DNA from: Marsupella aquatica
Taxonomy: Eukaryota; Plantae; Marchantiophyta
NCBI GenBank assembly: GCA_973895155.1
Contig: OZ316899.1
Location: 15,775,974 to 15,839,973 of the forward strand
Length of the DNA: 64,000 nucleotides
Direction of reading: 5' to 3'
Below the pieces are notes generated by a model, which did not search any database, had not been told where the DNA came from, and was given only the letters and a program-made list of their open reading frames with translations. Each line of letters opens with the position of its first letter. Position 1 is the stretch's first letter. This document shows positions 21,210 to 60,251 of this stretch, in pieces. The position numbers and the translations under genes are program-made.

Positions 21210-21899
21210 GGGGTATAGCAGTGGAGACAAGAAAAAGGAAACAGTTTTCCTGTTACCAGGTAATTTCTCCTGGTAGCAGGAAATTGTTATTGTAAAGGTG
21301 TACTCTTTGGCAAAGTTTTTCAAAAATTCACGTAAGTAACAACCACATACTGAAGCTGAAAATATTCCTACTGGCATAAGACACGACGTCAGATATAAGT
21401 GAAAGGTGTGCTCACAGTTGCTCGAAGAGGTTCTAATCCCTTGTCACTTGCTCAGATTATAGATAAAAAAGGGTTGTCATTCAATTCACTGTTGTTTAGA
21501 TATAGCATCATTTCTAAATAGTCCACTTTGGAATACTTCATTTAGTTCATATACTTCATTAGTGTGTTTTTAAAAAGCCAAACCATGAAACCCATGGAGG
21601 AATGGAGTATGCTCAAGTGGGACCCACCACAAAGCCAGTTATAGTCTGAATTAAGTCATCAGAAACATAGGGTTCTGCCAGGCAGAGTGTGAAACTAGCG
21701 CCAGGCACTAACAAAGGATAAAGTACGCAGAATATAGCGACGATAATCAAAGCTTACGGGACCATCCAATGACACTAACCAGATAAAATCAAATCATCCC
21801 GACGCTAACCAAAACCACATTAAAAACTAGAGTAATATCCATTAACTAAAGACAAAACAACATAGTATCCGTTATGGAATACGACAGTTAAGGAAAAAT

Positions 21900-24800
21900 T
21901 GCGTCCCTCTATAAACCATTTGCGTTCTGCCTCTCCAACACAAGTTTGACTTCCCCAACTGTCAAAATGGGTTGGCTACATAGGGTAGACTCCTCTACAT
22001 GAAACATGAAGACATTTATGAACACCTAGTACAAATGTTTACAGGGCATATACGGCTTGCCGCGGGAATGACGACGGAAGAAATCCTCACAGGAACAAGT
22101 AGGAAAGATGCACATCTGGACAAAGTAAGTGTTTGGGGATCGAAGGTTCTCGTGAGTCCGTATTCTGAATTGTTTTCCAAAAGCAATTCCACTAATCACA
22201 TCCCACTCTCCATCCAGAGTCATAGCTTCTTTTTGAGCCGACTCCATTTGTTTACTATGAGCCACAGTTTGATTAGAGCGAGGTCTGGAGTTCCTCCCAT
22301 TCCTTTTACGAAGATGCACGTTGGGCTTCACAAAATTGATTTTCTCTGGAAATGCGTTTACATTGATTCTCAAGTCGAATGCAACAGGTGCAGTTAGAAT
22401 TCGAGAGGTCGCAACTGTGTGGACCATATAGACTCCCTGCGCTTGGAGGTACTCTATCTCACCAGGCAAGAGGTTTGTTCCTTTCACAATTGGCAGGATG
22501 TCCAGTACAAGAGGAAGGCATTCAACACCACGACGCAGGAGGCTCTTGTAGCATGTGCTGTTTGGGCAGAACCATATCATTTTGGCAATGGACGTTCCTC
22601 TGAAAATGCAATGTCCGCTGACAAAAATGCCGACAACACCAGCAGCAGAATGGAACCCTACTTTCTTGACACGATTTTGACACTCATCTCTGTCAAAATT
22701 TCCATGCAAGGTCCCATTACACTGTGGCCCTGCCCCATATTTGGCCGTCCGTCTCAAATGCCAGCTCCCTCTAGGAAGTCCATTTCCAAAGGAGTTGATT
22801 CTGTCGGCAAACATTGAAGCATAGCAAGGGCACTGCGTGGTGGTTGAGATGATGTTGTTTCCCTTGTGGCTCCAAGGGTGTTCGCAAGGGAATTGCTTTC
22901 ACTTGTTGAAGTGTCACTCCTGCAGAGGTCTACTACAAGATCTACTACATTGGCGGGAATGGAAGTGAACTCAGTGTTATTGAGATTCTTCCGTTTGAAT
23001 CCTTGAGTATTTGGGGTAGTGATGAGAATGGTGTCATGCCGATGGGAGTCTTGTGGCGAGACAATCCCAGTTGCAAGTCCCTTCCTCTTAACCGATTTGG
23101 TGACGATATCTCCATTCAGAGGAGAATTCCTACCCAGATCAAAATCAGCAGAGTTGGAAAGAATCATGTTAGTGGCTTCTTTGATTAACTTGGGTGAACC
23201 TGCTTGGTCTGCCGAACGGAATGCTAATTCCCAGATAGTTGGCCCCTTCCCTCTATTGAGTCCTTTCCGCATACACTGTAACCCGCAACTTGAGATATAC
23301 CTCAATTTTGATCAACTTTGCATGCTTTGAAGAGACCCACCATTTTTTTGGTTGCCCATGCTTTCATTGAAGCGTGCCTTGACTCAAAACCTATACAGTT
23401 TGGAATGAGGGCACCTTCTTCTGCACTTTTGCTTTGCAATGAAGTCGATCCAGACCAACTTTAGTCAATTTGTTTAAGTAGTGCTAGCAATGTATATGAT
23501 ATATTAATATAATTTGGTATTATCAAGTGTTCCTAAGCCATCAATGTGGCAAAGTTATCTATACAGTTTAAAGCAGCGCCAAGCACTAGCAATGTGTATG
23601 ATACAATAATATAATGTTGGTATCTGTACAGTTTAAAGCAGCGCCAGGCGCTAGTATAAACACACTGAGAAGTGACTATTGTACGTATTGATAAAACTTA
23701 CCACGCGAATGAAATTCCCCCACTGACGCCATTGAACGACCCACCATGATATCCAACTCTGCAACATCATCAATTTTCCTGGTACACAGTTGCCTGCTTG
23801 CCACCACAACACAATCTTCCTAGAAACTCGGTACACCGCAACGAACGATGGAGCATTTTGCAATTTCTCCCAGAGTCTTCGATGTTCAGGTTGCCTACCC
23901 TCTAGTACTCCCTCCGTGGAATGTTGATGGAAAGACTGGTAAAAGTGGAATGCATCAGAGCATTCATGTTCAGGGTCTAGGTGACCTCCAAAAAGACATT
24001 GCGAACGACGATCCATCCAGCCTGAGCATTGTCAACCATAAAACCTTGAATGACAACCTCATATAACCCATTTTTCCTTACAAACCTCAATCATAATTCT
24101 CCATGCCTTCTCAAAGGACTCTGTGTCTTCAGCTTTTAGTTCGCATGTGAATATTGTACAAAGAGCTCGAAAGTTATGATTGTAAACATGTGCACTGAAA
24201 GTAAACCACTCGACGAACCCAGTACAAGTGACCTTACCAAACTCCCAATGTTTCTTTGGTTGCACGTTTACGGTTGTTGGAAAAATCCTTTGGCACGGTC
24301 CATATCACGAAGTCTAGATCCCTTGGACTGCATTCCCTCAATGGGAGGCAACTCAAATACAACATTTCCGTTGTACTTGTTTGGCAAACAAGGAACTTGC
24401 TCATGTTGAAAGTCCCCTACCAAGATAAATCTCGACAGTTCACTATGTCCCGTGGCCTTGAGTAAGGCGTCCATTGCACTCCGCCGGTAAACCGTATGGA
24501 CACTCCGGAGGTGGCCACCGGTTCTCTTAAGGCAACTAGAGTCTGGAACTTTGTACTTTGTAGGAGGATTGGGCGCAACATCCTCATCTTCACTCTAAGA
24601 TATTTTAACAACCTGGGTCGGAATGTTCTCAACAATCGATTGAAGAGGAGTAAGTCTGACATGAAGCGTGTAATGAAGTCCGACATTCATGTGCCAAAAA
24701 CATATTCCCTCATCCACATCAAATGCCGCAGCATGTTCAAGTCCTCCACTTGTTGACTCCTCAGGAACAATCGACTCAATGTCATTGATTCTCAAATCGA

Positions 24801-24948
24801 ATCTCCCGCACAAGTAGGTTTTGCTTACTTGCTTGTAAGTATCAGAAACTTGCACGGGAACCTTGACGACGTTCCCGGTACAAGCACGTGTAATAACAAT
24901 TGAGCGCGACATTGTAGATGAATGAAGTGAAAGCCAAAGGAAATTCAT
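21900..24948 (-). pseudogene. MULE-family transposase with C-terminal SWIM zinc finger (disrupted, intron near 23460-23700)
   Basis: SWIM motif TCSCEDF...PCKHLY in 22026..22814. MULE core-like segments FSAHVY..LCTIFTCELKAED and GFMVDNAQAGW...ECSDAFHF (~23900-24265). N-terminal LPNKYNGNVVFELPP. Confidence 0.72.
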
Positions 24949-25171
24949 GCACTAAGCCAATCCCGACCGTATGGGTTGCTTATACCACCCCTTCAAAGAC
25001 CAACGGCCGTTAAAAGAGTTGTTTCAATGCGACAGAGAACACGCACAACTTTGCATCCGTTGAAATCATAAATGAAACATTTGTCCTTTTTGCCCGGCAA
25101 GTGCGGGTGTCAGGAATATTTATTACATGAATACGACTAGATAATAGCCTATACAAGTGCATCCAGTTCAT

Positions 25172-25562
25172 TAGCGTTAGGCGCTACCAAAAAAGCATTT
25201 GAATAACAATGACTTAATTTGAAAAGTCTTGTGACTAGCGCCTGGCGCTAGCATAATCATACACGCAATATTCATGAATTGTTTTTGCAAAATATTCCAT
25301 CACAAGCATTTTTAAGTTCAAATACAATAAATTGGTACTAGCGCCTGGCGCTAGTATTGATACAATATACTTAATACCTTAATATCAAGTAAAGTTTAGT
25401 TACTATGATTGAAATGAGTACATTTGGAAGTTTGTTAACAATATCTGGTACTAAAATAGAACGTTAATCAAACTATTCACATGGCTAGCGCCGGGCGCTA
25501 GCATTTGTTCACCAATAAGTTTTTGAATTTAGTGGTCACTTCTTTGTTAGCGCCTGGCGCTG
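25172..25562. repeat. Cluster of five 15-bp palindromes TAGCGCCnGGCGCTA in the divergent promoter region
   Basis: Copies at 25172, 25236, 25339, 25486 and 25548 in otherwise AT-rich DNA; further copies are dispersed from 21696 to 32002. Confidence 0.9.
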
Positions 25563-25878
25563 GCATTGCATGTCTGTTTGAAAGGTGTTGAGACAATGGT
25601 AACATTTAACGGTAACTATTGTTTAGCGTGATGATCACGCCAACATTTTAGCGTAATTCACATTAATACTTATCGCAATTTATAAATTGTCGCTTTCTGT
25701 CACGGATAAGTAATATTGAATCTCGTCGTTCACAATGAGTAACGTCTCTCCAACCAATTGAAAAGAGGGGAATGGCGCTCATTGATTGGATATAATACGG
25801 ACGCAACTATTAATATGGTACGGAGAACTAGTAATCGGTCGTGAGAATTCCGTTTGTACACCTTTCAGCGTAAAGACG

Positions 25879-28800
25879 ATGGATGCAATCCCCTCCTCGC
25901 CGAGGGGGTATAGTGTGGTTGGGGATTGGGATCATGGGTATTGTGAGTCTTTTGAGTCTTCATTCTCTGGTTCAATGTATACACGTCGAGTAACGAGGTC
26001 CACCGCATCGCTTGTTCCAATCTCTGGTATTTTGTTTGCCAAGCCAGCGAGAAAGAAGATGGAGAATCTTGACACATTTGCGATTCAAGATGTTTTGTTT
26101 TCAGAGACCGATCTTATTTCAAAACACGTCATGTCTTTTGGGAAAGATTTCAGAGGTTTTGACAAAGAGCCTCCACGAATTCCGCTATGTTGGTTGGTGC
26201 ATATGGAGGTTGTCCAAACTCTGCAGAAAGATAGCTCTTCCATCGACAAGCTGAAAGACTCTTTCCATAGCATGGGATACAATTCTTCGATTGGAATGAG
26301 GTTTTATGTTCAGCCTACCAATGTTGAGGGAGTGCTTCTCACTTGTGATCAGGAAATCCGTGATAGTTGGGATCCAATATGGGCATTTGAGAATGAGAAA
26401 TTTGAGGAATGTGTTGCCGACCCAGATTTTCTGGTTTTGAAGGATAGAATGTTCTTCGTTTTTTATGGGAACCATAGGCTTTACTCATGGACACTTGTCA
26501 CGCAGGAGAATCCCAAAAACCCAAAGTACCACCCGCAAGTGCTTTGTACTATTTTCAATGGGGACAAGGGTTCGCTGATAGAAATCGAAGCGGCTATGCA
26601 CACCGTTAACCAGTAAGATTCTCTTTTGTGCATAACTTTGTGAGTCATTGTGAATTGTTAATTCTTTCTAGCATAACTTTCCGAGGCCATGTTTTACAAG
26701 CGCACAACGTTGCTTATATGTTCTTCTCATTTCATTCTTTTATTTCAGGCGTGGACAAGCGAACCCTCCTGGATCCTAGACGCCGATCAAATTAAGCAGA
26801 TCTTGATGCACGACCTAGAGTACTATAGTAAGTTCATCGACCCTGCAAATTACAAGAAGTTTAAGCAGATCAAGATGAAGACACGGAAAGGATCCTGGTA
26901 CACAAAGAAGATGCCTCAAGAGGCTCTTGTGTACATTCTATGTCAGGATAAGATTAAGTTGTATTTGAACAAGTTCAAGATTGACATGGAGTCCGCTGCG
27001 GCCCTCGGTACCCCTTGGTCGGTCAAGGAGGTTTCTAGAAGGCATACCATTATGATGAATGAAGCAACCAAGGAATGGGCAGTGAAAACCTCAAAAATCA
27101 CTTTTTTGTTGAGTCCAGAGTTTGAAAACTTTCTATCTACGTGCGCAAAAATGTATGCTGTCACGGAGAGGAATAAGCGGGAGAAGAAGCCAGATACCGT
27201 GTTGTGTACCATGGACCGGGCCAGGCTTTTTACAGCTATTTTGGCTCTTGATCCCAAGCTACAAAGTACTTTTCTTGTAGCACATTGCAATCTGGAGCTC
27301 CGGAGACAATTCTTCCATCCAAATAGCGTCAATGATGATCCAATAAAACAGTGGTGTCACACCTGGATTACATGGAATAATGTAGAAGGGATTGCGGTGG
27401 GGATGTTGCAATGTGCTCTGCAAGAGGTCCAACAAACCATTCCCGTGAATCGTTTACAAGATTGGGCATGTGAATCATTCGAATCTCTCATTGACATAGT
27501 CACGAATGATTTTAAGATATACGGTGACTCTGTCAAGGGTAAGTTTTTTAATACAATGTGGCCCTCAAAGTATCTTGACAAAGAGGATTACTCTTTGAAG
27601 AACCAGAAGCAAGCAAAAAGGTACCTCTACCATTTTTACATCCACATGGAAGCTACAAAACCTGATTACTTCTGGGCGTATCCCGCCGCCTTCCTCAAGT
27701 GGACTATAATACCGGATAGTGATTCTTTAGCTGAATTGTATTCTATGTATCCTGCCAAGGGAATTTTCCCAGCAAGACCTTTGAGTGAATGGGATTGAAC
27801 CCATTGTCCATGGTACCTTGATACAGATAGATGGGACTCGCCCTTTGATCACAAAGAAAAGGATGCTTTCCATAAGCTGTCTAAGTCCCAGATCCCAGTC
27901 AATGTTGTTTCTGACATGAAGCTGGGGCTTCCGGACGATGTGGATCAATCCACAACAGAATTGCAAACAATATAATGTGAGACAACAATTGTTCATGTTG
28001 ACCAAAGCTGGAAGCCTCGCGCCAAAGCAAAAGCAGATACTATGGCCCCAAGTGAATCAACAAGATCTGGGAAAAAACGTAAGTATAATTTGTATCTCTT
28101 TGGTTAGCGCTTGATGTTGCTATGGCAGTCAATATCTGTCACATTGTTAGCGCCCGGCGCTGCTATGGCAGTCAATTACATTGTTAGCGCCCAACGCTGC
28201 TATGAGTGTCAATATTTCAAAAACTGAATTGGTATTTTTAGTCAAAAAAGTGTATATTTATGGCCAAGTCTTAGAGATAGTTTGGCCAACGCTGGGCATT
28301 AGCATTGTCGTTGTCTCAATATTGACGGATATCACATCGACATCCATTTGAATAGGGAGAAAGTCAAACCACATGGGGAGCGAAGATACAAAGATAGATG
28401 CCACCCCAGAGGCTTCTGAAGCCAATACCGGAGCACCATCCGATCCAATTACTCCCGCCAAGAAAGGGAAGGCAATCGCTCCAGTGGATGCGACCAATAC
28501 AAGGAAGAAGAGGAAAAGGACCATTGAAGGTGGATCTTCCTCTCGAGAAAGTGCTGCTACTGTAGGTCTTCAATGTGAAGTCGAGACTTCAACAGTAGAC
28601 TTTCAAGGCATTGCCTTGTTGAATCTAGCATCTCAGAATTCTACGACTCAACGTTTAACAAAGGGGAGAAGCCTGACTGGGTGAAGGGTGTAGAGAAATG
28701 GGGAAAGGATCTCATGAAGCCTGGTTTTCAAGAGAAGGGCGTTGTGCGTGGGGGAAAGGAGAGATCATTTGGAGTCCAAGCGGGTTTTATCTACCTTCCG

Positions 28801-29714
28801 ACATGACTTAAACCATCTTTGCTAGACAAAAAAGTCCCCAAATTGAATGTCCCCAACCACACATTGGCCACCTCTTTCTTTTGTGGAATGGATCCATTTT
28901 TATCTGATGACGGAATGCTGGCCATTTTACATAACAGGGAGTACGATCCGATGTCTCAGGTTATATCGGCTTGTCAGGAATCAAAGAAGTTTCATTGCAT
29001 CTTGACACACAATGTTGTCATGTCAATTCCAATGTACGCGCCGAAGACTGACTGACAGGTAAATTTCTCATTGTGACATCTGGTTTGCAGTTCAAAGAAT
29101 GTTTATGAATGCATCCATTGACATACCATTCTTGGGTTATATTTCAGATCTTCACGCTCAGGCTGGTCGTCTTCTGTCAAGTGTCTGAAAAAGGGAAGGT
29201 GCCAAAAGACTCAAGGTTTAGACCTCTGTCTGTCACGGAAGATTCCTCCATAACAAATTTAATTGGACTTCCCTCTCTCAAAGTCGATCCAACACCTAAG
29301 ATGGAATTTGCTGGGAATGCCCGTTTGTCAGTTGGATTCATGCAATCTGTGATCGAGCTCATCACTCGGCCTAGGGATATTTTCATGGATTGGAAAGTGG
29401 GGTCGGGTAGCTCTTTTGTAGCTGGAGACTATTCTGGGAGGTTTGTAATTGGAGTGGAGAATAGGAAAGATTTTGTTGAAACTGGTTCCAAGGTGTTCTT
29501 AGATCTACTTTCTCCAAAGGAAGTCAAAACTTTGCCACCCCCAATTCAACCACCCAAAAAGAAAAGGAGAGACAGGCTCCGTTCTGTACTTAATTTTGAC
29601 TCTGACAATGAGTCAAGTGGTGCGACAGCAAACGAAGATGAGGATGGCACACCTGAGGGGAAGGGTCAGGAACAATCCACTGGCCAGAGTGACAATGATG
29701 ACTCTTTCGAGTAA
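25879..29714 (+). pseudogene. Intron-containing gene: ParB/Sulfiredoxin-like N-terminal domain, helical middle, C-terminal N4/N6 DNA-methyltransferase-like domain (copy 1)
   Basis: RIPLC.LV...IDKLKDSF...FFVFYGNHRL (ParB-like DGNHR, D>Y here). C-terminus VIELITRPRDIFMDWKVGSGSSFVAGDYSGRFVIGVE resembles the beta-class amino-MTase SAM-binding motif. GT-AG introns at ~26613-26748, ~28079-28353 and ~29059-29147. Stops and frameshifts present. Confidence 0.7.
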
Positions 29715-30358
29715 TGTTCTGAAACTCATAAGCTTCTTTCTCCTTTCCAGTTCCTTCATGCTTTTGTGCTATCCATTCATACAATCGGTTGACGAACTTC
29801 TGTTCTCACCCAGGTCCGAATGGAATACAAGAAGGCGCTTCAAACTCAGAAGAAAAGTAGCTCATTTTGAAATTGTGACTTTGGAGAAACCATTTGTTTT
29901 ACCCTCTTATGTTGAGAATGCTGCAAGAATGGAAGATAATCAAAGGACTCTTTTTGGGGAAAACAAAGGTCTCCGGCTACGAAGAGGAGTTGATAGAACA
30001 TTTATCCAAAATCCTTTAGTTATGTCGACGACATTTGTAGGAGCAAGTATGTAGATGACGAGGCAATCTCAACCGAGAGGTCACAGAGCTCCGAATCAAA
30101 ATTGTTCGATTCATGAAGCATTTTTGCGGCTAAGATTTTACCAGCGTCAGGCGTTGTTATCAAAATTATACATGTATTTATTATCCCAATTATGATTGGT
30201 TTACGTTACATTGATAATAAAATGTATTAAATTCCTCATTTCCCTTACTAGCGTCGGGCGCTCCCCAAACGTCTACTTTTCTAATTACAAATTTTGAATC
30301 TTCTGTCCGTTCCGTGGCCCCGCATATTTTGTCGTTACCGAAAACAATCATCTCTTTC

Positions 30359-30872
30359 TCACATGTTGCGGTTGGTCTTTCTCAACGGTCCTTTTTTCGT
30401 TGAACCTTGTTGTGTTACGTTTTTGCTGATCTCCAACCCTAAACTCTCCATTAGGTCACTCTTGCGAGTCATTTCAGGCACAACCTCTCTCAAAGTTGGG
30501 TCATTTTCAACAACACCGGTCTTGTCATTAGCCTTGATTTTGTTTAACAGTTCCCACCAGATGGAGAAGAAGGAACTCATGTCTTTGGAGGAAATGCTTG
30601 CCTTCTTTGCTCCTTCTAGAGTTTGATCGGAGGAGAGTCACTTTAGCTCCTTCAAGTCCGTTCATGGTAACACTTCCACCGAGACCTCGACTTTCCATAA
30701 TCATTTTGCGCTTCCTTATGATGAGGCGATTAGTCCTAGGGAGAGAAACATACCTTGGACTGACGACCGGGACACTCCGCGCATAGTTGCTGATCGGTTT
30801 TTGTTTCATGAAGTCATTCATGCTGATGGTATTCAGCCTATTGAGCGATGAGTGCAAGAGCGATTGGGACAT
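30359..30872 (-). pseudogene. Possible third small gene of the MULE, unknown function
   Basis: Two overlapping ORFs (30528..30872, 30359..30580), convergent with the ParB-like gene; no domain recognised. Confidence 0.25.
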
Positions 30873-32517
30873 GTTGACTTCCTCGATACAAATGTTCCAG
30901 ACCCCGGGAATCAGTATGCGGAGTTTCGGCGCCCCTCATCGTCTTATGTGCGGCTCAGGGGTCTAGGGTTCAAGCAAAACCACAGACGGGCCAGGGCGGG
31001 TATCGACAATGACTGCCAATTGCAGAGCTAAAGTTGTTCAGGACGGAGGTGGTTTGAGTGACACAAGCTTCAGTGGCCATAGGCTTGCATACGATTTGCT
31101 ATTCCTTAATCGCCATTTAAGCTAGCGTCGAGCGTTGCTTTTGTCCATCTTGGACAGTGGGATTTCTTCTATGGTTGATTCAGAGTTTGTGTATTTTTGG
31201 CTACATCTTGAGGCCCATTTTGGATCAGTGTCCCAGTTATGTGCAGCTCAGGTCAAGAAAAAGCACAGACGGGCCAGGGCGGGCTTCGGCGGGCTTTGAC
31301 GACGACTGGAAATCACAGGGATTCTGGTGCTCGGGCCAGAGGTGCTTTTAGTGACAGAAGGTCCAGTTTTAGTGTGTTGGTGACAATTTCCTTTTAGAGA
31401 GCTAGATTTAAGCTAGCGCCGAGCGTTGCTTATGTTCATGTTATGTCGTGGGTTGATTTCGGGATGATCTGCGGTTGGTGTAATCCCGATTATATGTTTT
31501 GACCCATTTTGGAAGTAAAGAATGCAGTTTTGGATCAGCTCTCTTGTTCTTTCATGGTCATTCGTTGATTCCAAGATTTGAGCTAGCGCCGAGCGCTGCT
31601 TATGTTCATTGTGTTCCGTGTTTAGGCGCAGACATTGAATTGTATGTTGCAACTATTGATTTCTAGGAGTCCGACATTTAAGGTAGCGACCATCGCTGCA
31701 AATATTCAACGTCTGTCGTGGCCTCTCTTGGTTGGAAATGCTTGAAATTGAGTTTTCAGTTCACTTCTCGATTGATGTCACATACAATCTCTATCTTTTC
31801 CCCTGAAATTCCCCTTCCCTTCCGGCATACTAGCGCAGGGTGCTGCTAATCTTCGCAAATTTTGGCAACGCCTTTGCTCTAATGGCCGTTAAGTTACTTG
31901 TTCTCTTCTCAATTGACGGTACGTAGAATCTCCATCTTTTTCATTATTTTAGGAATACCTAAAATTGGCCCTTCCCTGCTGGCATACTAGCGCTGGGCGC
32001 TGGTTATCTTCAGAAATTTTGGCAACGCCTTTTTTCTAATGGCCCTTACTTTTTTCACAATTGGATGGTGTTATTGAAAACGACTGAAAATGGGGTTTAT
32101 TGATGGTGTTTTTTAAAAACTTTTTGACCAAATAATGGAGCTCAATCACATGTTTTTTTTTCATTTCTCCTGGTAATAGTAATTGTTTGCTGTTACTGTT
32201 TCCTGGTTCCTGTCGTTTGTAAATACCCCCTAGGGAGACACCACTCCCCTCATATATGCTTCTGCACACCTGCCACCCCCGGACCAGCTTTGGTCCCTAA
32301 AAATTTGGCCCCCAACCCGGATCCTATCGCACATAATGGGCGCGCCACCAACTGGCAACGCCCATAACTTTCTCGTTAGACATCCGCAAGCTGAGTGCCT
32401 TGGCCCGTTGTGATCAGGCCGACCCAGTGCTCATGCCTAGGCCCTTAGGTCACATCACCGCCTGGGGCCCCCGATCGGCCCAACCCGGATCGGGCCATAA
32501 CTTGCGCCCCCAACGTC

Positions 32518-33263: not shown

Positions 33264-33511
33264 CCGGCCCATTTCCCCTTGACCCGACCAGCTATCCGCT
33301 AGTTCAAGTCCTTAGTGTGTGTCCCCAGCTTGGCTCCTTGCCTTGCTAGTGCCACGTCTCATTGCCCGCAAGTCTCCCCATGCTAAGCCCTCCTCGGATG
33401 GCCTATCCGAGCCTGGACCATAAGGGAGCTCGGCGTCGGAGTCAACAACGCCGGAGCTAAGTGTTAAGGTAGTCGAGTTCCGCAATTGGTGGCTAGGTCC
33501 ACCACTTAGTT

Positions 33512-41886: not shown

Positions 41887-44839
41887 AGTCGCGGAACTCG
41901 ATTACCTTAACACTTAGCTCCGACATCGCTGACTCAGATGCCGAGCTCCATTCTGGTCCAAGCCCGGATAGGCCATTTGGGGAGGACTTAGCATGGGGAG
42001 ACTTGTGGGCAATGACACATGGCACTAGTGAAGGTAAGGAGCCAAGCTAGTGACACACACTAAGGACTTGGACTAGCGATGGCTGGTCGAGTCAAGGGGA
42101 AATGGGCCGGGCCCAACAATGGCCGTCCGGACCTCCGGATGGACTTTGAGTTCTGAGGACTTGGGAGTGAGCTCCTCTTGGGCCCAAGGCCAATGGAGTT
42201 GACGAGTCGCGAAACTCGACTACCTTAACACTTAGCTCCGGCGTCGCTGACTCCGACGCCGAGCTCCCTTATGGCCAAGGCCTGGATAGGCCATCCGGGG
42301 AGGACTTAGCATGGGAAGACTTGGGGGCAATGAGATGTGGCACTAGCAAGGCAAGGTGCCAAGCTGGGGACACACACTAAGGACTTGGACTAGCCTATGG
42401 CTGGTCGGGTCAAGGGGAAATGGGTCGGGCTCAAGGATGGCCTCCGGACCGTCGGATGGGCTTTGAGTTTTGAGGGCTTGGGAGTGAGCTCCTCTTGGGC
42501 CCAAGGCCAATGGAGTTGACGCCATTGGCAACAGACGCTTGGGGCGCAAGTTGTGGCCCAAGCCGAGTTGGGCCGGTCGGGGGCCCCGAGCGGTGATCAG
42601 ACCTGAGGGCCTAGGCATGAGCACTGGGTCGGCCCGGCCACAACGGGCTAAGGCACTCTGCTTGCAAATGCCTATCAAGAAAGTTATGGGCGTTGCTAGT
42701 TGGTGGCGCGCCCATTATGCGCAATGGGATCCGGGTTGGGGGCCAAATGTTTAGGGACCAAAGCTGGTCCGGGAGTGATGTGTCCCTGGGGGCTAAGGGC
42801 GAGCCGAAGTCGTGAGCCGCGGCGGTCGCGACACTAAGGGAAACCGCCAAACGGAAACGACGATATCTTCCCAACGGGAAGTCCGTTGGAAGACTTCTTA
42901 GGTGCGTTGGAAAGCTCTTGAGGAGGGCTACGCCTCCTGAGCTCAGCTGGGTCTGGGGGTGCCATGGGTTCTCTCGGTTTGCGGGTGTTAGCTCGCCCGT
43001 TTGCCAAATCCTGCCGAACAGCAGCCAAGCCGCGTTCAGCCTCCCAAGGGAGCTTGCGTTGGGGAGGCAAGGCCAAGTAGGTATGGAGGTTGAGTCCCAA
43101 GGGCGCTCGGTCCCTAGACCATCAGTGGGGCGAACTGGGAGCGGTTGTTAGAGTCGGGGCCATTCTGGTCCCGGCGTGTTGAGACAAGCTTGGGACAAGC
43201 TTTAGGACAAGCTACACTAATTGGGCCATGAGCATGTCCTGAGGTCAGGGCGGTCAGTTGGTGATGGATAGGTACAAGGGGGAACCCGGGCCGCGCCCAA
43301 GGAAGGAGCTGTCCTGGACGGACAATGGGCGTGGGTTCTGGTTCCGGCTTATGGCATCGGGAGGACCTATCGTTGACCTATTTACCAACGTCTGTTGAGC
43401 TTGAGTTAGGACGCTAGACTGGGCGAGTTCTAGATCCGGAGGGGTTACTTACCGAGGTGTTTGGTTGCTTGTGCAGACAGTGAGGACCGTTGAGTAGCGG
43501 TCGTGTAGGTGAGCAAGTGCGGCTTCGTATGGGAGTGGCCGCAGGTGGTGCTAGAGGCACTTGGATGCTGGCTCGAGGTATTCCGTGGAGGCGTTCGGGC
43601 ACCAAGGGCACTTAGGCGCAAGTGCTGGGATTGGTGAGGGCGCTGGGTGGCGAGGTCCACCACTTGACGCCATTGGCAATGGACGCTTGGGGCGCAAGTT
43701 GTGGCCTGATCCGGATTGGGCCGGTCGGGGGCCCCAAGCAGCAATCAGACCTGACAGCCTAGGCATGAGCACTGGGTCGGCCCGGTCACAATGGGCTAAG
43801 CAACTCCGCTTGCGGATGCCCATCAAGAAAGTTAGGGGCGTTGTCAGTTCATGACGCGCCCATTATGCGCGATGGGATCCGGGTTGGGGGCCAAATGGTT
43901 AGGGACCAAAGCTGGTCCAGGGGTGGTAGGTCTCCAAAAGCATATATGAGGGGAGTGGTGTCTCCCTGGGAGCAAGGGTGAGCCAAAGTTGTGAGCTGCG
44001 GCGGTCGCGACACTAAAGGAAAGCGCCAAACGGAAATGGCGATATCTTCCCAACGGGAAGTCCATTAGAAGACTTATTGGCTGCGTTGGAAAGATCTCAA
44101 GGAGGATTACGTACTCCTGAGCTCAGATGGGTCTAAGGTTGCCATGGGTTCTTAATATTTGCGGGTGTTAGATCGCCCGCTTACCAAATCCTACCGAATA
44201 GCAGCCAAACCGCGTTCAGTCTCCCAAGAGAGCTTACGTTGGGGAGGCAAGGCCAAGTAGGCATGGAAGTTGAGTTCCAAGGGTGCTCGGCCCCTATACC
44301 ATCAGTAGGGCGAGAACCAAAAAGTTGGTTGCTAGAGTCGGGGCCATTCTGGTCCCGACGTGTTGGGACAAGCTTTAAGACAAGCTATGCTATTTGGGCC
44401 ATGAGCATGTCTTGGGGTCAGGGTGGTCAGTTGGTGATGGATAGGTACGAGGGGGAACCCGGGCCACGCCCAAGGAAGGAGCTGTTCTGGACGAACAGTG
44501 GGCATGGGTTCTGGTTCCGGCTTACGGCATCGGGAGGACCTATTGCTAACCTATTTACCAACGTCTGTTGAGCTTGAGTTAGGATGCTAGACTTGGAGAG
44601 ATCTAGATCTTGAAGGGTTACTTACCAAGATGCTTGGTTGCTTGTGCAGATAGATAGAGGACCGTTGAGTAGCGGTTGTGTTAGAGAGCAAGTGCAGCTT
44701 CATATGGGAGGGGCCACGGGTGGTGCAAGGGGCACTAGATTGCTTGCTCGAGGTATTTTGTGGAGGCGTTTGGGCACCAGGGGCACTTAGGCGTGGGTGT
44801 CGGGATTGATGAGGGCGCTAGATTGCAAGGTCCACCACT
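41887..44839 (+). repeat. 3' LTR of element A, split into 41887-42204 and 43665-44839
   Basis: AGTCGCGGAACTC start after the PPT; GGTCCACCACT end. Confidence 0.9.
42205..43664 (+). mobile_element. Family-A solo LTR (1460 bp) inserted in the 3' LTR
   Basis: TSD TGACG at 42200-42204 and 43665-43669; AGT...ACT termini. Confidence 0.93.
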
Positions 44840-45056
44840 TGAAGCTTCCTCCCATGCGAGCTTGACAAGCGATTTGTCTTGGCTATCCCATTTCGTTGTA
44901 GATGACTCGGTAGGCCTATTGGGAACTTACTTAGTTATACTTAAATCCAATCAAATAATGTATTGCACCCAAAATAGACGTAAACAAGAAGGCATCTATC
45001 AGGGAAGGTAGTTGACATGGATAGCCCAATAGAGATTGACTATTCCATCCAGATGG

Positions 45057-45480
45057 ATCTTGGAGAGGGCAACCAAGATTGACTCTTCAATTGACGGATC
45101 TTGGAGAGGCCAACTGAGATGACTATTCCTGAGATGGATCTTGGAGAGGCCAGCTGAGATGACTCTTCCATTGACAAATCTTGGAGAGGCTAGCCAAGAT
45201 TGACTCTCCCATCAATGGATCTCAGAGAGGCCAGCCAAGATGACTATTCTTGAGACGGATCTCGGAGAGGCCAGCCGAGATTTCTCTTCCTGAGATAGAT
45301 CTCAGAGAGGCCAGCCAAGATGACTATTCTTGAGACGGATCTCGGAGAGGCCAGCCGAGATTTCTCTTCCTGAGATAGATCTTGGAGAGGCTAGCAGAGA
45401 TTGACTCTTCCTGAGACGGATCTTGGAGAGGCCAGCCAAGATGACTCTTCTTGAGACGGATCTCAAAGAGGTCAGCCAGG
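45057..45480. repeat. Tandem array of 11 units of 40-41 bp, each with an imperfect palindrome
   Basis: Unit ATCT(T/C)GGAGAGGCCAGCC(A/G)AGAT plus GACTCTTCCTGAGACGG-like linker. Units start at ~45057, 45098, 45138, 45178, 45219, 45259, 45299, 45339, 45379, 45420 and 45460. Confidence 0.92.
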
Positions 45481-45713
45481 TGCTCGACAATGTCAATCGC
45501 AAATGGACTTGTCATTGCATGTAGAGGAATGAATCTTGGCGAGGTCCGCCAGCATGCATCTCAAGTTAGGACTTGCCCTCGCTTGTAGAGGAGGCCAGAT
45601 GCTATGAATGTCAACAAGGTCAGCTGACATGCACACATCTTGGCGAGGCCGTTGACTTGTATCTCTCTATTGTCAACCATTGCGATGAGCAAGCAGATAT
45701 GAAATGAACAATG

Positions 45714-48700
45714 TCAAACGCCAAAAAACTTACATGTTGTTGGGAGTACTGCCGGCTTTTTCTTGTTGTGCTTTTCTGGATTGGCTTTTGAACGGACCAC
45801 CAATACCTCTTCCTCCTCCGGGGAGAGCACTCCAACCAATTTTGCCAGTTGGTCTTGTGCACAAGTTCCAAAGTGCGGATAGGATTCAGTCCCAAACACC
45901 ATCCGTCTGCAGTTCTCACCCGCCTTGAATATTGTCCCAAACTATGCATTGAAAGTGAGGATAGTTGCCCCTGGCTATGTTGTATATTTGATGATACATT
46001 GGAGCGTTGTTGGCAACAATGTGCCCGCAAAAGGATTGTTAACCTGATTCTTTGTGGGTGTATAGTTTGTTAGCCCATTCCTGCTCTTCATATTGAGCTC
46101 TAATTGTAAGACATTTGAGGACTAATTGGTGCCACATCGTCCTTTGGGCATAGCTCTACAATAGACTTAAACCCCCACAGGTCTAGCTTGAGATATTTGC
46201 TCTGGATTGGCCAAACACATTTAGAGGTCAGACTTCCTCAGTTGAGGACAATAAGTCATTGGAATAAAAATGAATGAAGAAGTAGGTAATTGATGGGACT
46301 TACTTGCTTCCCAGTCCTACCGTCGTAGGTGGGTGTGATGTTCCAAATAAAGAAGCTTTCTCTCAACCCCTAGTTGGTATTCTTGTAAACTAATGCATCA
46401 TAAATGCAAGTTGAGTGCCAAAGAAAACCATTGTGCACTATGGCAAACAGTCCCTTGGAATCAAGGAGATCTCAAGCAAACTCTTGAACCCGATTCAAAT
46501 TGTCCTCCCGGGACAAATTCCACAATGGGATGGACTTATCCTTGACCACACGCGTGTCCGTTCCCATATGTATCAGAATTAAATCTACACCAGTCTTGAC
46601 TTGCTTCCCCCCTTTTCTCCAGGCATTTTGACGCAAACCTTCTCGCAATAGCTTTGTACACCATGAGATCAATTGACTAACTGCAGGGGGTTTGGTACCT
46701 TCTTCAACCGCATCAAAAAAAGTTGTAAATAGGTTTAGAGACCACCTAAAATACATATGTTTGCTATAGGAAGACATGGCATCGGTGTCAAAATGCCTTA
46801 CACCTTCCACTTGTGTATTATCCTCTTCTCCAAGGGCCTCTTGATCCTCCTCATTTTCCAATGTGGGGTCAGGTTAGATGGTTGTGGGTGGAACCTCTCC
46901 AGTGCCGGGTGGGGGAGGCAATATAGTGGGGGTAGGAAGAGGAGGAAATTCCTTGTCACGTGCTTTGCTTGGACTCCCTTTGGGAGCTCTGGGTTGCCTA
47001 GTTTGCTTTCTTTTTATGGCCTTTTTGTTTTGCTATGACAGTAATGGTGATCGGTAAGGTGCACGAGAGATATCAGACAAGCGCCCTTTGTCCCCGGATT
47101 GTCCTTTGTCCTCTTCCTCTTGCTCCCTCTTCCTCTTGCTCCTCTTCCTCTCGCTCACCCACATCATCCTCACCTTGTTGCTTCTCAGCCAGTTCATCTT
47201 GTACTTCACGAGCCTCATGCAAAGGCAAGTCAGATTCTTGTAGTGGAGCCTCATTCAGATCCATCTTGACTATTGGCTGTGTACCCTTGTGCCCTAGACC
47301 CTCCTCAACCCCTGGACCCTGCTCAACCCCTGGACCGTCCTCAACTGCTGCCTTTGTAGCCGGCTCTACACCCTTGCTCTTGACAGAACCAGGTTCCGTT
47401 TGGATCTATGCATAACCTGCATAGGATGCAAATTGATGAGCTTCATTGTGGCCTGCATCTCGGTGAGCCTCGCCAAGATTGGGTTCATTATATGCAAGCA
47501 ACTTATTACTCAACTAATACTTCATCTTGGCGAGCCTCACCGACATTTGGACTGGACCGGACACTTAATCTTGGCGAGCCTTGCTGACATGTGGAGGGGT
47601 TTGGATTTCAAAGACGTTCTATGTCATCCACCCTCACCGAGATGAGACCCTCATTCCCTTTTGTGTTATGGCAGCGACCCCAGCCAAGGTTAATTCTAAT
47701 GTAAGCCACCACCTAATGCAAAAGGAATTGAGTGATACTTGATGGGGTCTTTGTTGGAGTGCTTATAGAATCTGGCAGACTGGCCTCAGCTGATTGTTCC
47801 TTGTTGACCTTCTTCTCACCTCCTTCCTTTTGGGCCTTTTTCCCATCATAGGCTGGGTCCATTGGGATTATGGCCTCCAGCGCTATTGCCTAGGGCACAG
47901 AGTCCAACAATTGTTGCAGCCTGGATATGTCGTAGTAATTTTTAGGCTCTTGTTGGTCCTTCAGCTTCATTGCACACTCCTTCTCAATGTCATCAATAAA
48001 AGTATTTTAGTCACGGTACTCCATATACCATGGGTAGTTTTGACGTTCCCAATTGTAGACTACTCTGCCATTAGGAATCTGGCCATCACATGGATACATG
48101 CTAAGGCTTTATTTCGGCTCCATCCAAGATGTGAGTGCCCATGGCAGCTCTTTCAATACGGATTTGTTCATGTTCTCCTGATGGATCAGAAATCTTTTCA
48201 CACACCTCTTTATCACTTTTTCACATTTCTTTTAACAGGACCGTGGCCTTTTGTCAATCCAAATTCCCCCGCCTAGTTTTAGTGATTTCTCTTGCACATA
48301 AGCAGCTTTCAATAGCTTTACTCTGCACTTTGCAGTTACCCAAACCCCAGCAAACAAGCGGACCCTATCCAAGTCAACCTGTACATTCATCACACCCTGC
48401 TTGGCGTCCTTTGACAACTTGTGATACAGCTACCAACATACCAGCATGAACTGCTCTCCATTGGCCGGCTTTACGCAGGCTGCAAGCTTGGGGAACTTGT
48501 TGTCCCAGGACTTGCATGCAACATAATCATTGCCTGTGTCTCCTCCTCAGTTCTCTTCACACTCCATGGGTGCCCATGAGTTGCATCTTGTGCCATCTAA
48601 TTGGAGATATTCATTTGTCCCGCTTCAATGTTTGACCAAGACATGATGTACACAATGGCTTCTTTTGTCATATTCTTTGAGTACCAAGTCTTCCCATGAC

Positions 48701-49387
48701 TTGATTTTGGGCCTTCAAGAAAGCCTCCATTGTCTCCTTTGACATAAGCAGACTATACTCCTCCAATGGAGTGTTCAATAGCTTTGCAACCCAATCAGAG
48801 TCATTAAACCAGAACGTCTTCACGATAGTCGCACTCATCCTGGAAATGACAAACAATACTCTTAGGTCTAACATTGAAGAGCCTTTTCATAACGTTTGGC
48901 AATATCAGAGAGGCTCTCCGAGATGGCACACAAGGTTTACACAAATGGGTAATCACATTTTGCAAAAAGACGCGAATGAGAGTACTTACAAGTTGAGAGC
49001 GTGCATTGCTTGCTCAACCTTCTTGAATTTGTCCTTCCCAGTATTCAAAAGACAGAATTTGATGCACATATGGTATTGCAATTGATCCGGATACTCAGAA
49101 GCAACTACGGACCAGGTTGTGTATCTATGGTTTCCATCAAAAACCCAAAACATCTTGTCCTTAAGGACTTTGAACTCCTCTGATGCATTGCACTCTTGCT
49201 CAAACTATTCATTGAGCTTAGTCCATAGAGGGTCCCAAAATGGCTTGAAGTCTCTCACTATCTGTGTTTCCCTGGTTTCATTGAACTCAGTGATGTGGAA
49301 CTCGCTAAGCTTTACAACGTAACCGCTCTCTTTGAATCCTTTCTTTAATTTTGCAATAGACTCATCTTGAAGATTTCTGACTGCCTC
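45714..49387 (-). pseudogene. ParB-like / methyltransferase-like gene, diverged copy 2 (5' end cut by LTR-B)
   Basis: AVRNLQDESIAKLKKGF...WDPLW...LKDKMFWVFDGNHRY; KVEQAMHALN followed by the same phase-2 intron as in copy 1; GVDLILIHMG...LLDSKGLFAIVH; IIKYTT*PGATILTF..FGTIFKAGENCRRMVFGTE. Confidence 0.72.
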
Positions 49388-52300
49388 TGTGATGCCTAGC
49401 CAGGAATCACTAGGCCGCATAAAAGGTAAAACCAGGTGGTATACAATAAACCATTGGTATAAGGAGGAAAAAACAAGAAAACATAAACAATTAAGGGTAC
49501 ACATGCAACCCAAGCCAAGGCCAGAAGTAAAAGGCGTAACGGCCACTAAGGGGCACGCTAAGTATCAGCGGCTATAGGTAATCAATAACCAAGACAAGCA
49601 GCGGCAGGCTAGAGGGGGGGGTAAGGGAGGTTCACCACGAGTGACGGCTCACATTCGCACATAGATTGAGAAGATTACGAGCATAAGCCAACGACTGTCA
49701 GCCGCGAAGGTGAACACGGTGGGCATAACCAGATACCAAGCAACAACAAAGGAGGGAATGAGCAACATCAATCAAGCGGCACATTTCTAGGGATGCCTGT
49801 TCGAACGGGCAAGTGAGTACATTGGGACCTACGAGGAGGAAGAGTCAAAAAGAGCAGCCCGCAAACAATAAGAGCTTTCTTGGCTGTGGGAATTGCAGAA
49901 GTCGACCTTCTTAGGAGGAGAGCTCATCAAGGCTGAGTTCTTGTGGACACCTACTGCCGATGAGCTCAACAATCTTCTAATTTGAGAGAACAAAATCATC
50001 GGCATTTGGCGGGCCATCAACAACTGCAACAACAAACACTGGGACCTAAAGGGTTGTACAGAGGCATGGACAAAAGCAACAGTGTTGGGGGAGTTGTCAG
50101 GAGCGGCCGAAAGGAAAAGGAAGATGGCCAACAACAAAGAAATCACACCGGCCAAAAGGACAAGGTTGGCAGCATCAAGAAGGCCGGCCCAGCCCAGCAA
50201 GGGAGGCATAGGGAGGAGGAAGCCGAGGAACAAGAGGTCAACCCAGTCAATGCCACTCCTACCAGAGATGACACATGGAAGGGTTGGGCGACAATAATAC
50301 CACAAGCAGTGCAACTACATTTTTCACGAGAGGAGGATGCATGCTTTACAGCCACGCAGACCAAAAAATATCAAGGCTTCATGGTCGGATCGGGCTTGGA
50401 AACCTTTGTTAGATTGCCGTGGCTAAAGCTGAAGGTGCCAGAATCAGACTTGCTGGAATTTGTGGGATCATGGGACCACAAGTCCAGCTCAACCAAGATC
50501 TACAAAAGGGACTTCTATCTCACTCCCAAGGTGATAGCTGAAGTATTTGGCTTGCCAATGGGCAACAAGACCAAGGTAGACACTCGGAAGAACTTGTCGG
50601 ACAAGGAGTTTAGATTGTTCCTTGGGCCATCAACGAAGAATGGCTTCTTCCAAAACACCTGCACCAACCTGCACATTGGAGAAATGATTGATTTCTTGTG
50701 GGTAACAATGCATTGCAACTTGCCGAGACCAAAGATCGGCAAGGCACAGGTTTACCTGGTAGAGAGGCCAGACCCAAGTCGGGACTACAACGGGTACCTC
50801 CTCAACCAATTGAAGAAAATATTGAGGGAGGAACAGCAAGTGATAAGCCAGGGGAGCATGTCTTGGCTTGGTTATCATATGCCGCTATTGTGCCGGTATG
50901 CCCAAAGTCAGATCTTTGCGCCAATACTCCCCCTGCAGGCAAGGGCGCCGGATGAGGCGTCGGAGCCGAGGCCTGCAGCAAGGAAGCCCAAACCACCCGG
51001 CAGCCCCACAATAGCATAGATCTTTAGGCCAACGCCGGGAGCCATGCCGATGCAGCAACCAGCTATGCAGAGCCTCTTGCACATGCTGTAGAAGGAGAAG
51101 ACGGCAATCGTAGCAGAGGCACCAGCCCAGGGCATGGTTGGGGTGGGAAGCATTGGAAGACCCACCAGAGCAGATTTGTTTGTCAGGGCTGCAGAGAGAA
51201 GGAGGCTGGAAGACGAGCTGGGGGTGCGGACGTCCGTGGGGGCCTCAAGACCAGAACCAGAAGGACAAGGGCCCAGGGTTCCTAGTCATGATGAGGAGAG
51301 AAGAAGGCAGGTGTGCAAGTCGGAGGAGAGAATCACACACCTGCACAGTTGCCGGCAAGATGCCGCACTCGCGGATAGCCCCCAAGGGGATCCGCAGGCA
51401 CTGGTAATCCAGGCCGGAAGGGAGAGCGTGGAGGACTACCACAAGGAGGACTTTGGCTATGGGTCATATTGTTTGGTACCAGGGTGTGGACCTATGGCCG
51501 TTTCATCCCCACCCTTCCAAGAGTGGTGCGTGGGGACCCACAACAACAGAGAAGGTTGGAGTCTCCCCCACCAGACGTTCCTCCTCCAAATTACGATGGG
51601 AGAAAACAAGCCGACGAGGAGCAACAGGAGAGACTCCGAGATTTGGAGAGGGCAACCCTAGCCAAGGAGAAGGATTTGCCAAGCGGAGGATGGCCAGAGG
51701 ACATTTGGCGGCTTGCAGAGGACCAAGCCGGGCCCTTGCCCACGTTTGACAAGATTTGGATGGCGGCATGGGAACAAAGGCCGCGTTGGGAGATGCTGGC
51801 ATCTCCTAACTACTCCACCTATGCAGGTTCCAAAGCCCTGGAGTATGGGAGGATGTGCGGACTACTTGCCCTCAACATCTTTGGGGAAGAGTTGGAGACG
51901 GAGCCTTTTGTCTACAGATGTTGGAGAGAAGCCGGTTGGAGGAAGCACTAGCCTTGGAGAGGATGAAGAAGGAGGAAGTCATCCGACGGCTTAGAGAGAA
52001 GGAAGTTGAGGCTGGAGATTTAAAGGGGCCAAGCAAGCCCAGGACAAGCTGCGGGTTAGAAAGCATGAGATAAGCATCATGCAGGGGCAACTGGCCTAGA
52101 CCTAGGGGGATTTGGCCGAGGCCCTTAAGGAGAAGGAGAAGTGGAAGCAAGAGCTTAAAAATGCAGAAGCATCTCACCTCATGGTCATCAACAAAGCCAT
52201 GGCCGAGGCGCAGAGGAAGGATCGGGCACTGAAGGAGGAGATCAAAGAATTCCGGACGACCCTCCATAAAAAAGATGACTTAGATGAGGGCTACAGGAGC

Positions 52301-53580
52301 GTCGACAAGCTAAAGGAGGACCTCAAAACCCTATCGGCCAATTGTCAAGCCAAACTGCATAAGAAGGATGACATGCTCGATCAAACCTACGAGAAGATGA
52401 ATAAGATAGAGTTTGATGTCATCTAGGAGCTCAATGCAGAGCTCAAAGCAAACCAGGAGGAGAGGGCGGCCTTATGGAAGGAGTTGGATGAAAGCCTGAA
52501 GGAGTTGGAGGAAGATTGCGGGGATTTGGATGAGACCCTAGAAGAGTTGGAGGACACCACACAGAAATTAGAGAACATGCAGAGGCGGGCAGACAACCAA
52601 ACGGATCAGCTGAAGAAACTGTCCGAGGAGTTAAATCGGTAGGCAGCAGCAAGTGAACCCCCGATGGTGGCAACGAGGTTGCAGGGTGTGGTCCTAACCG
52701 AGTGATAGGCCAAGGTACCCTCACCTTTGCTGGAAGTAAGTGGCAAGGGGAAGGCACCGGCTCTTTGGGAAGGGAAGGACGAAGAAGCAGCCCTGACACT
52801 TAGATTAGTGGGATTGCGGATCCGCTGGTAAGAGCAACACTTGTGCTCTTGCCCCGCTGTACATAGGTAGATTCCAATTAGAGGTAGATTTGGCTTACGC
52901 AGCAAGGAAATAGGTAGGTGCGTTGCCAGGATAAATACCTGTGCAAGCGGGGACTTGGGGGGCCTTCTTCATAAGCAAGTTTTTAGTGCACCAGCAAGGC
53001 TAGGATCAATTAGTAAAGAGAAGCTCTTGGTTAGTTATGTAGTGACCCTTGTGTATATTGATGTGTCCTCATGCCTAAGAGATGAATAGAGTTGGCTTTT
53101 TGGCTTAGTTTGTAGACCTTGTTTATGAGAAGTACTCATTGTACGGCAATGGCATGGTATAACTTAGTCAGTAGGAGTCATCTTTCTAGTTGTGTGTCGC
53201 ATCAACTTGTGTGAAGATTGCCCACATCAACTACAGGAGAGAAAGGAAGGTTAGAAGCAGGGAGAGTTGGATGTGTTGAACTGAGAAGGATCCAACCGGC
53301 TACCCAAGCCGATTGGGCATCATTCCGGGGGCAGAATCCAAACATGCCTGAAGGGAGACCAATAGAAGAGAGTAAGGAGAGGCCGAGAATAGGCCGGGTG
53401 CATATCTCATGACCCGGTGAAGGATCTATCTAGTATATGTGGTTAAAAAGCTAGTAGAGTAGAGTTAGCAGCGTCCCATGCCGACAAGCCGCGGAACCGG
53501 CCTTGGTAGGAGCAAAACCGGTGGGAATCGGCTTGTTCAAGTCGGGTTCGTGGGTTTAGGGTGTCATGGGATGCACCACA
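49388..53580 (+). mobile_element. Family-B 5' LTR (copy 3, 4193 bp)
   Basis: TGTGATGCC...GCACCACA, immediately followed by a PBS and gag; a deletion near 52790 makes it shorter than copy 1. Confidence 0.9.
49758..52803 (+). pseudogene. Family-B LTR-encoded protein, copy 3 (disrupted), same strand as gag
   Basis: ATG 49758 (MSNINQAAHF; copy 1 MSNVNQDAHF); ORF pieces 49982..51019, 51134..51661, 51469..51951 and 52112..52426. Confidence 0.78.
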
Positions 53581-60169: not shown

Positions 60170-60251
60170 GGGTATAACCACCGTGCCAGGAAACAGTAAA
60201 AAGAAAACAACAAACAGTAAACAAGAAACAACAAATGGGTGAGAATTTTTT

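Follow-up and report, generated by a model that had tools for sequence, protein, structure and literature searches.

Accessory proteins with a ParB-like domain have been described for transposons of the brown alga Ectocarpus and of Bostrychia. Sola1-1_Ec32 of Ectocarpus encodes a 1104 aa protein with ParB-like and N4C/N6A methyltransferase (MTase) domains; binding to, and modification of, the element that encodes it have been proposed (PMC12477816). In Bostrychia, the Plavaka accessory protein PAG3 is ParB-like and is found adjacent to inverted-repeat tandem arrays; self-binding has been proposed, and the cassette moves between transposon superfamilies (bioRxiv 10.1101/2025.02.11.637652). VANC21 and VANC6 of the Arabidopsis VANDAL elements have family-specific motifs that are located in non-coding DNA, amplified in tandem and co-evolve with the protein (PMC5735166, PMC10398659). 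Spm TnpA and the AtMu1 transposase bind and demethylate at element termini (bioRxiv 10.64898/2026.08.24.746577), and VirB is an anti-silencing cytidine triphosphate clamp (PMC10676424). Here we analyze a 64,000-nucleotide stretch of the genome of Marsupella aquatica (Marchantiophyta), referred to as the window (GCA_973895155.1, contig OZ316899.1, positions 15,775,974 to 15,839,973 of the forward strand). Two decayed genes for a predicted ParB-MTase-like protein (the helper) were identified, and we refer to them as copy 1 and copy 2. Copy 2, within positions 45057-49387, is associated with a 23-bp palindrome (motif 2) and copy 1 with a different palindrome (motif 1). Motif 2 tracks the protein clade of copy 2 and is very probably a selected, lineage-specific site.

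The copy 1 gene, like that of Sola1-1_Ec32, is transcribed in the opposite direction to its transposase-like neighbor. The likeness is one of architecture and extends to a brown alga; no palindrome is mentioned in the main text of PMC12477816 or in the supplement row for that family. Unlike the protein described here, PAG3 is fused to a 2-oxoglutarate (2OG)-oxygenase, the MTase is a separate gene, and family-specific motifs are not stated in the preprint's account of this protein. The VANC systems share with the copy 2 element the presence of family-specific motifs in non-coding DNA and tandem amplification, and the location of motif 2 sites inside helper introns resembles the placement of VANC targets (PMC5735166, PMC10398659). 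VANC motifs, however, are 8-9 bp long and non-palindromic, their function was shown by experiment, and no ParB or MTase domain is reported in these accounts. As here, the family-specific motif clusters of TnpA and AtMu1 co-diversify with transposon lineages, although the proteins involved are transposase-derived. Features in common with ParB/Noc, KorB and VirB are the ParB/Srx nucleotide-binding fold (here predicted), G-x-x-R and palindromic sites (PMC7383237, PMC10676424). Unlike the sites of ParB/parS and Noc/NBS, the two plant motifs are of unequal length (15-17 bp against 23 bp), and there is no ParA. MpDN4MT1 and the MTase clades (PMC4738411) and DAM retrotransposons were also considered, and their architecture as described differs from that of the ParB-MTase helper.

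Published work already covers ParB-MTase cargo (PMC12477816), the occurrence of ParB next to inverted repeats (the Bostrychia preprint) and motifs that are specific to a family (VANC, TnpA). The earlier note on this DNA saw in copy 2 independent internal support for a wider system, but the support is not independent and that system is published in outline. We found no publication that describes, for this gene in land plants, palindromes specific to a clade; subscription journals were outside the coverage of the search. What is new is the first cross-sample evidence that the palindrome, which is real and very probably selected and lineage-specific, follows a protein clade.

Copy 2 is a minus-strand gene that extends from 49387 to about 45734 and is truncated on its 5' side at 49388. 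As the earlier note had claimed, it is a second homolog: similarity to copy 1 extends across the ParB-like, central and MTase-like parts (38% identity over 141 residues of the ParB domain, E 3e-22), and copy 2 is also homologous to the 1207-aa Riccia protein P0154. The D-G-N-H-R motif described as intact is indeed present (49138), but the gene is dead. Due to its 5' truncation and 11 in-frame stops (counted over six homolog-aligned segments, with two in a wrong frame left out), we interpret copy 2 as a pseudogene despite this motif. Four public contig sets each cover every one of the 30 bins into which 44850-49420 was divided; they contain 398-1068 variant records per set and differ from the window sequence of copy 2 chiefly by T>C and A>G. 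Given these many variants, their main direction and a CpG observed/expected ratio of 0.37 (an estimate of methylation-type decay for copy 2), this is a multi-copy family of which the copy at hand is methylation-decayed. Copy 2 is a defective representative of this repeat family, which is likely a plant DNA transposon.

The first intron was said to be the same in both genes. The donor agrees in codon and phase (after H-x-x-N plus 2 nt), and the intron position coincides with the end of 50 of the 80 homolog rows that have a residue at that column. Only the donor is demonstrably common to both, because the copy 1 acceptor is out of frame with the next exon.

With one mismatch allowed, the motif 2 pattern ATSTYRG-N9-CYRASAT has 18 matches in the window, 17 of them within 45057-48924. 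The motif 1 pattern YAGCGCCNGGCGCTR has 16, all within the span around copy 1 given in Table 1. Only 0.33 matches are expected for either motif and 0 of 100 shuffles reach the observed counts, but because the patterns were derived from these same sites the counts show clustering, not independent prediction. Neither motif matrix reaches 12 bits in the other element or in the rest of the window. The absence of TAGCGCC from copy 2 was confirmed (neither it nor GGCGCTA occurs in 45057-49387), and all four palindromes previously placed in copy 2 introns are present. The array placed at 45057-45480 was found as tandem 40-bp units. Among the downstream palindromes, the one at 45537 is the core start of the site at 45533, whereas 45641 was rejected as a full site and is a half-site only (2 of 11 pairs). 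Also rejected as a full site was 47621, where other family copies fit worse (A at 47622). All six non-array copy 2 sites tested and all 16 motif 1 sites fall outside coding segments; the non-coding share is 0.19 and 0.43, respectively, and the sites form only 3 and 6 independent clusters. The equivalent of intron 2 contains motif 1 in copy 1 (28148, 28185) and motif 2 in copy 2. Motif 1 sites also occur in the transposase intron and the intergenic DNA of the copy 1 element.

In other family copies, motif 2 reads ATCTCGGCGAG-N-CTCGCCGA(C/G)AT; written out in full, the site is ATCTCGGCGAGNCTCGCCGASAT. Half-sites are split between TCGG, TTGG and TCAG, the pattern of CpG decay. Sites in these other copies are more perfect, and their number changes by duplication: the array varies in unit number, and in one contig intron 2 contains an additional unit. 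The earlier note aligned 15-bp cores of the two motifs as related, in the manner of ParB and Noc sites. Its motif 2 core, TGGCG-AGnCT-CGCCA, is a decayed form, because other copies read C at 47528, 47572, 47582 and 47585 and G at 47539; the undecayed core is CGGCG-AGnCT-CGCCG. Because other copies carry the undecayed bases, the shared TRGCG arm is partly a product of CpG decay. The decayed core matches motif 1 at 4 of 7 half-site positions (P 0.07-0.11) and the undecayed core at 3 of 7 (GCG; P 0.24-0.33, random half-sites). GCG-N5-CGC is still common to both motifs, but this is not significant. The information in motif 2 is mainly at positions 5-11 from the center and that in motif 1 at positions 1-6. 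We therefore rejected the core alignment as evidence of common descent, as the kinship fades once CpG decay is removed, and the origin of motifs 1 and 2 from one core is not supported.

The association of motif and protein was evaluated using four comparison loci (L001-L004), recovered from 42 pattern matches in one metagenome scan, with a motif 2 matrix built from nine window sites. A careful tree was calculated for 35 chosen rows and a tree of 89 rows in quick mode. The proteins of L002 and L003 are 51% identical to copy 2 and group with it (99/97 support in the 35-row tree, 99 in the quick tree), so that a 99/97 branch separates the motif 2 carriers from all other rows. Intron 1 of L002 has two motif 2 sites (28.1 and 26.2 bits, P 0.002, the floor of 500 shuffles) and intron 1 of L003 has one (14.5 bits, P 0.006). 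By the matrix, there is no motif 2 site in L001, which belongs to the copy 1 side, or in L004, a distant outgroup. Otherwise, the intron 1 sequences of copy 2, L002 and L003 align no better than shuffles, and in a BLASTN comparison L002 matches the window only in exon 1 (69.5%) and the motif array. The L002 sites have the undecayed TCGG and an inner variant also found in the copy 2 array. In P0031, a further clade member available as protein only, the sequence continues into intron 1 and has HLGEAR as its last residues, which is the translation of motif 2 and aligns with HLGE at 48914; none of the other proteins in a set of 155 matches a motif-2 peptide pattern, and the match was noticed post hoc. 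Thus, on these few loci, motif 2 tracks its protein clade, as predicted; no such tracking was seen for motif 1. Associated palindromes accompany the homologs at L002 and L003, and none that is repeated was seen in the short contigs of L001 and L004. Strict orthogonality of the putative protein/site pairs of the two families is, on the sequences, reasonably likely.

The single match to the motif 2 pattern in viral_contigs (L005) is attributed to chance, because it falls within coding DNA of a phage and the gene has no homolog there. Upstream of its gene (positions 1-165), L002 also has a tandem repeat of roughly 58 bp without motif 2.

The N-terminal domain has 172 relatives in a profile-free HMMER search. 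Nine of ten proteins looked up were named, and eight of these are from the liverwort Riccia sorocarpa or the fern Adiantum nelumboides. An AlphaFold2 model of the copy 1 domain (pLDDT 93; copy 2 is assigned by homology) has only ParB/Srx superfamily members among its top eight structural rows in VIA-align (Z 5.0-7.3), including KorB (Z 7.3, root-mean-square deviation 2.6, 92 aligned) and PadC (Z 7.0), and its top Foldseek rows are ParB/Noc (E 0.06-0.2). A ParB/Srx fold is thus predicted for this domain. GNHR is invariant in 16 of 16 rows; in the ParB/Srx fold, G-x-x-R is the nucleotide-binding motif. Searching PDB sequences with the ParB domain, and with a profile of it, returned nothing useful. 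The central domain has no assignable structural match (model pTM 0.49) and no Atlas match. Relatives of the gene were not found in viral_contigs, genome_contigs or phage records, and word-based homolog searches of the longer proteins found none. Pfam scans identified no VANC-type family (no direct comparison with VANC proteins was made). One homolog, P0021, has an Atlas feature lead of 0.80 (below 0.9) to fungal DUF3723 clusters; we found no paper joining DUF3723 and ParB.

PF01555 matches the C-terminus of copy 1 and of the Riccia homologs (family positions 164-218; scoring below the curated cut-off, with E between 4e-4 and 9e-6), an M.DpnA-type PDB entry matches the MTase-like part (E 4e-4), and copy 2 aligns to the motif IV region of P0154 (E 3e-8). 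The C-terminus is thus assigned by sequence as beta-class amino-MTase-like, with motif IV before motif I. The canonical catalytic motif IV of N4C/N6A DNA methyltransferases is (D/N/S)PP(Y/F). At this position copy 2 reads HMGT, copy 1 YLPT, and the homologs DLPT, DMPS, DMPT, DVPF and DFPI. The helper could dock on its sites and be catalytically active there, leaving a private 4mC/6mA mark; the output would then be marking and not clamp spreading. Copy 2 and P0154 retain motif I and the beta-class order, the homologs still have D-x-P, and this possibility matches the proposal published for Sola1-1_Ec32 (PMC12477816). We nevertheless regard it as improbable. Canonical PP(Y/F) occurs in none of the six homologs that reach motif IV and in neither window copy, and copy 2 has HMGT, which may reflect either decay or the state of the family (40 of 468 rows of differences from other copies were covered). 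From these motifs, the domain in this family is more likely a poor or dead catalyst than an active writer.

We propose that the predicted ParB/Srx plus amino-MTase-like helper docks on the 23-bp palindrome, and so recognizes and probably keeps active its own family; for this reading as a whole we consider the case evenly balanced. A helper dimer would bind the two half-sites via the central helical domain and close on nucleotide, as ParB, KorB and VirB clamps do. The closed clamp would then spread over the element and oppose CG methylation by the host, in the way VANC acts for VANDAL. Tandem duplication would multiply the sites, and each lineage would drift to a private site. Clamp loading and spreading against silencing are suggested because ParB relatives such as VirB behave in this way. 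By analogy, a role in anti-silencing or self-marking is quite probable. More tentatively, and with some doubt on our part, transposons of non-seed plants may carry a diversified set of eukaryotic ParB-type clamps, with private palindromic loading sites for each clade in introns and element ends; the result would be a natural library of mutually orthogonal pairs that load, spread, and rewrite or shield plant chromatin family by family.

Several observations weigh against this reading. Motif 2 carriers have one origin on the tree, and 30 of 500 label shuffles do as well. The informative loci recovered number only four, and L003 fails the strict motif 2 pattern. Motif 1 is in none of the four, including L001, the nearest to copy 1 (52% identity), and L001 and L004 have no repeated palindrome in their contigs of 1.2-1.8 kb. 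Structural scores are modest (all Z below 8, Foldseek E-values above 0.05). The site specificity of ParB/Noc resides in the helix-turn-helix (PMC7383237), and no helix-turn-helix of the ParB type was found here; the low-scoring central-domain model yields no match that could take its place. The motif IV sequence of copy 2, although from a decayed copy, departs from the canonical form. The tracking of motif and protein cannot separate the helper from the transposase as binder, because both are co-inherited, and neither the partner transposase nor the missing 5' part of copy 2 was found within the window. The tandem array is of a terminal type that suits subterminal repeats of a transposase as well, and covariation in the seven outer pairs of motif 2 exceeds that of shuffles, which is compatible with a hairpin.

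The palindromes could instead be bound by the transposase, or by a factor resembling TnpA, in synapsis and self-activation, with the ParB-MTase gene as a passenger whose phylogeny mirrors that of the element. The 10.6-unit array is on the 3' side, like a subterminal repeat, and TnpA has family-specific motifs while the AtMu1 transposase alone achieves self-activation (bioRxiv 10.64898/2026.08.24.746577). In addition, no DNA-recognition domain was identified in the helper from the central-domain model. However, TnpA and AtMu1 bind at termini, and the sites described here are internal and in helper introns, where motif 2 has been kept in intron 1 across three DNA loci. In the copy 1 element, motif 1 additionally occupies the intron of the transposase gene and the DNA between the genes. 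This explanation is rather unlikely but a live rival, the most serious of the alternatives. We judge the helper a somewhat better candidate binder of motif 2 than the transposase, because the sites are in its own introns across lineages, as for VANC, while TnpA and AtMu1 transposase act at termini.

Palindromes may also act as RNA hairpins or DNA cruciforms, with splicing, small-RNA or structural functions, rather than as protein half-sites. On 13 aligned sites 78.5% of cells pair, with covariation above 500 of 500 shuffles. Yet inner pairs 8-10 are unpaired in seven of the 13 sites and pair 3 in five, the majority intron-2 form has a C-C mismatch, and where both sides have changed, this is for the most part symmetric CpG decay among array units that are related. 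Arm spacing is constant and an Rfam search gave no match. A hairpin role is very unlikely; a dimer that binds double-stranded DNA accounts better for the fixed distance between the arms, the mismatches tolerated at inner positions and the dyad symmetry. Even less credible is that the sites are neutral relics, short palindromes spread by local duplication and inherited without function. Array length and the number of intron-2 units do vary among copies, and third positions in the L002 exon are unsaturated (60%). However, the sites avoid coding DNA, and these CpG-rich sequences persist in introns that can no longer be aligned, in relatives at 51% protein identity.

If docking of the helper on motif 2 is correct, land plants would have adopted the logic of ParB-type clamps as a code by which transposons recognize themselves. 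It would constitute a second, independent route to VANC-like anti-silencing and offer a mechanism for the spreading that is unexplained in that system. The suggestion of self-binding made for algae would become a precise test, with a defined 23-bp site that is conserved across one protein clade and a different site in the neighboring clade. Orthogonal pairs could be tools for locus labeling or targeted epigenome editing.

Table 1. Features of copy 2, copy 1 and their surroundings, in window positions.
Feature	Position	Strand	Remarks
Copy 2 exon 1, 5'-truncated	48990..49387	-	ParB/Srx-type domain (EAVRNL...DGNHR...AMHALN), one in-frame stop; fold predicted on the homologous copy 1 domain
Copy 2 intron 1	48840..48989	-	GT-AG, phase 2
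Copy 2 exon 2	47739..48839	-	Central all-helical domain (helical from the copy 1 domain model); several stops and frame changes
Copy 2 predicted intron 2	47417..47738	-	Donor uncertain: 47738 or 47766
Copy 2 exon 3 (approximate)	46304..47416	-	Low-complexity linker and first half of amino-MTase-like domain
Copy 2 motif IV position	46559-46570	-	Reads H-M-G-T; within exon 3
Copy 2 exon 4 (approximate)	45734..46201	-	Holds S-adenosylmethionine-binding motif I region
Copy 2 motif I region	45933-45962	-	ILTFNA*FGT; beta-class order, motif IV before motif I
Motif 2 site	48902..48924	.	Copy 2 intron 1
Motif 2 site	47457..47479	.	Copy 2 intron 2
Motif 2 site	47524..47546	.	Copy 2 intron 2; other copies C at 47528, G at 47539
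Motif 2 site	47568..47590	.	Copy 2 intron 2; other copies C at 47572, 47582, 47585
Weak motif-2-like site	47621..47643	.	Probably no true site
3' non-coding sites	45533..45660	.	Possibly last intron (donor 45733); full sites 45533 and 45608, half-site 45637
40-bp tandem array	45051..45478	.	10.6 units, motif 2 variant in each
Motif 1 site span, 16 sites	21696..32002	.	YAGCGCCnGGCGCTR; all non-coding
Copy 1 ParB-like/MTase-like gene, decayed	25879..29714	+	YGNHR; motif IV position Y-L-P-T
Transposase-like gene, decayed	22020..24950	-	Head-to-head with copy 1; SWIM-like CxC...CxH end
Retroelement-type repeat	49388..52790		Adjoins and truncates copy 2 5' end; related repeat at 4344-7736

The transposase-like partner of copy 1 has DDE-like and SWIM-like motifs by eye and no Pfam or homolog match; by these motifs it may be Mutator-like. 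As to terminal inverted repeats, candidate ends of the copy 1 element have only weak mutual similarity, and both ends of the copy 2 element are interrupted.

The window is a nest of repeats. The motif KNGFFQNTC is common to the long open reading frames (ORFs) of three repeat copies (4275-7736, 13652-16884 and 49388-53580), which lack a Pfam match. A repeat of 1.2-1.5 kb with 81-90% identity, in part in tandem, occurs at 1224-2718, 16886-18199, 19035-20501, 32224-33489 and 41887-44845. Gypsy-like pol remnants were identified by eye at 35074-41362 (reverse transcriptase, RNase H, integrase and a chromodomain-like end). These follow an extra ORF of 684 aa that has a coiled-coil tail, and related ORFs are located at 55400-56740. 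Also present at 57568-60400 is a further minus-strand gene remnant with introns, containing neither motif 1 nor motif 2. It is preceded by CACTAGTAGAAACC and by short AAAGACTAA/GTCATT-type repeats in both orientations. Similar CCAGGAAACAGTAA-type stretches, each followed by A-rich sequence, were found at 32160-32210 and 60180-60270 and are possibly a common transposon terminus. A region at 21236-21330 shows weak similarity to these stretches in inverted orientation.

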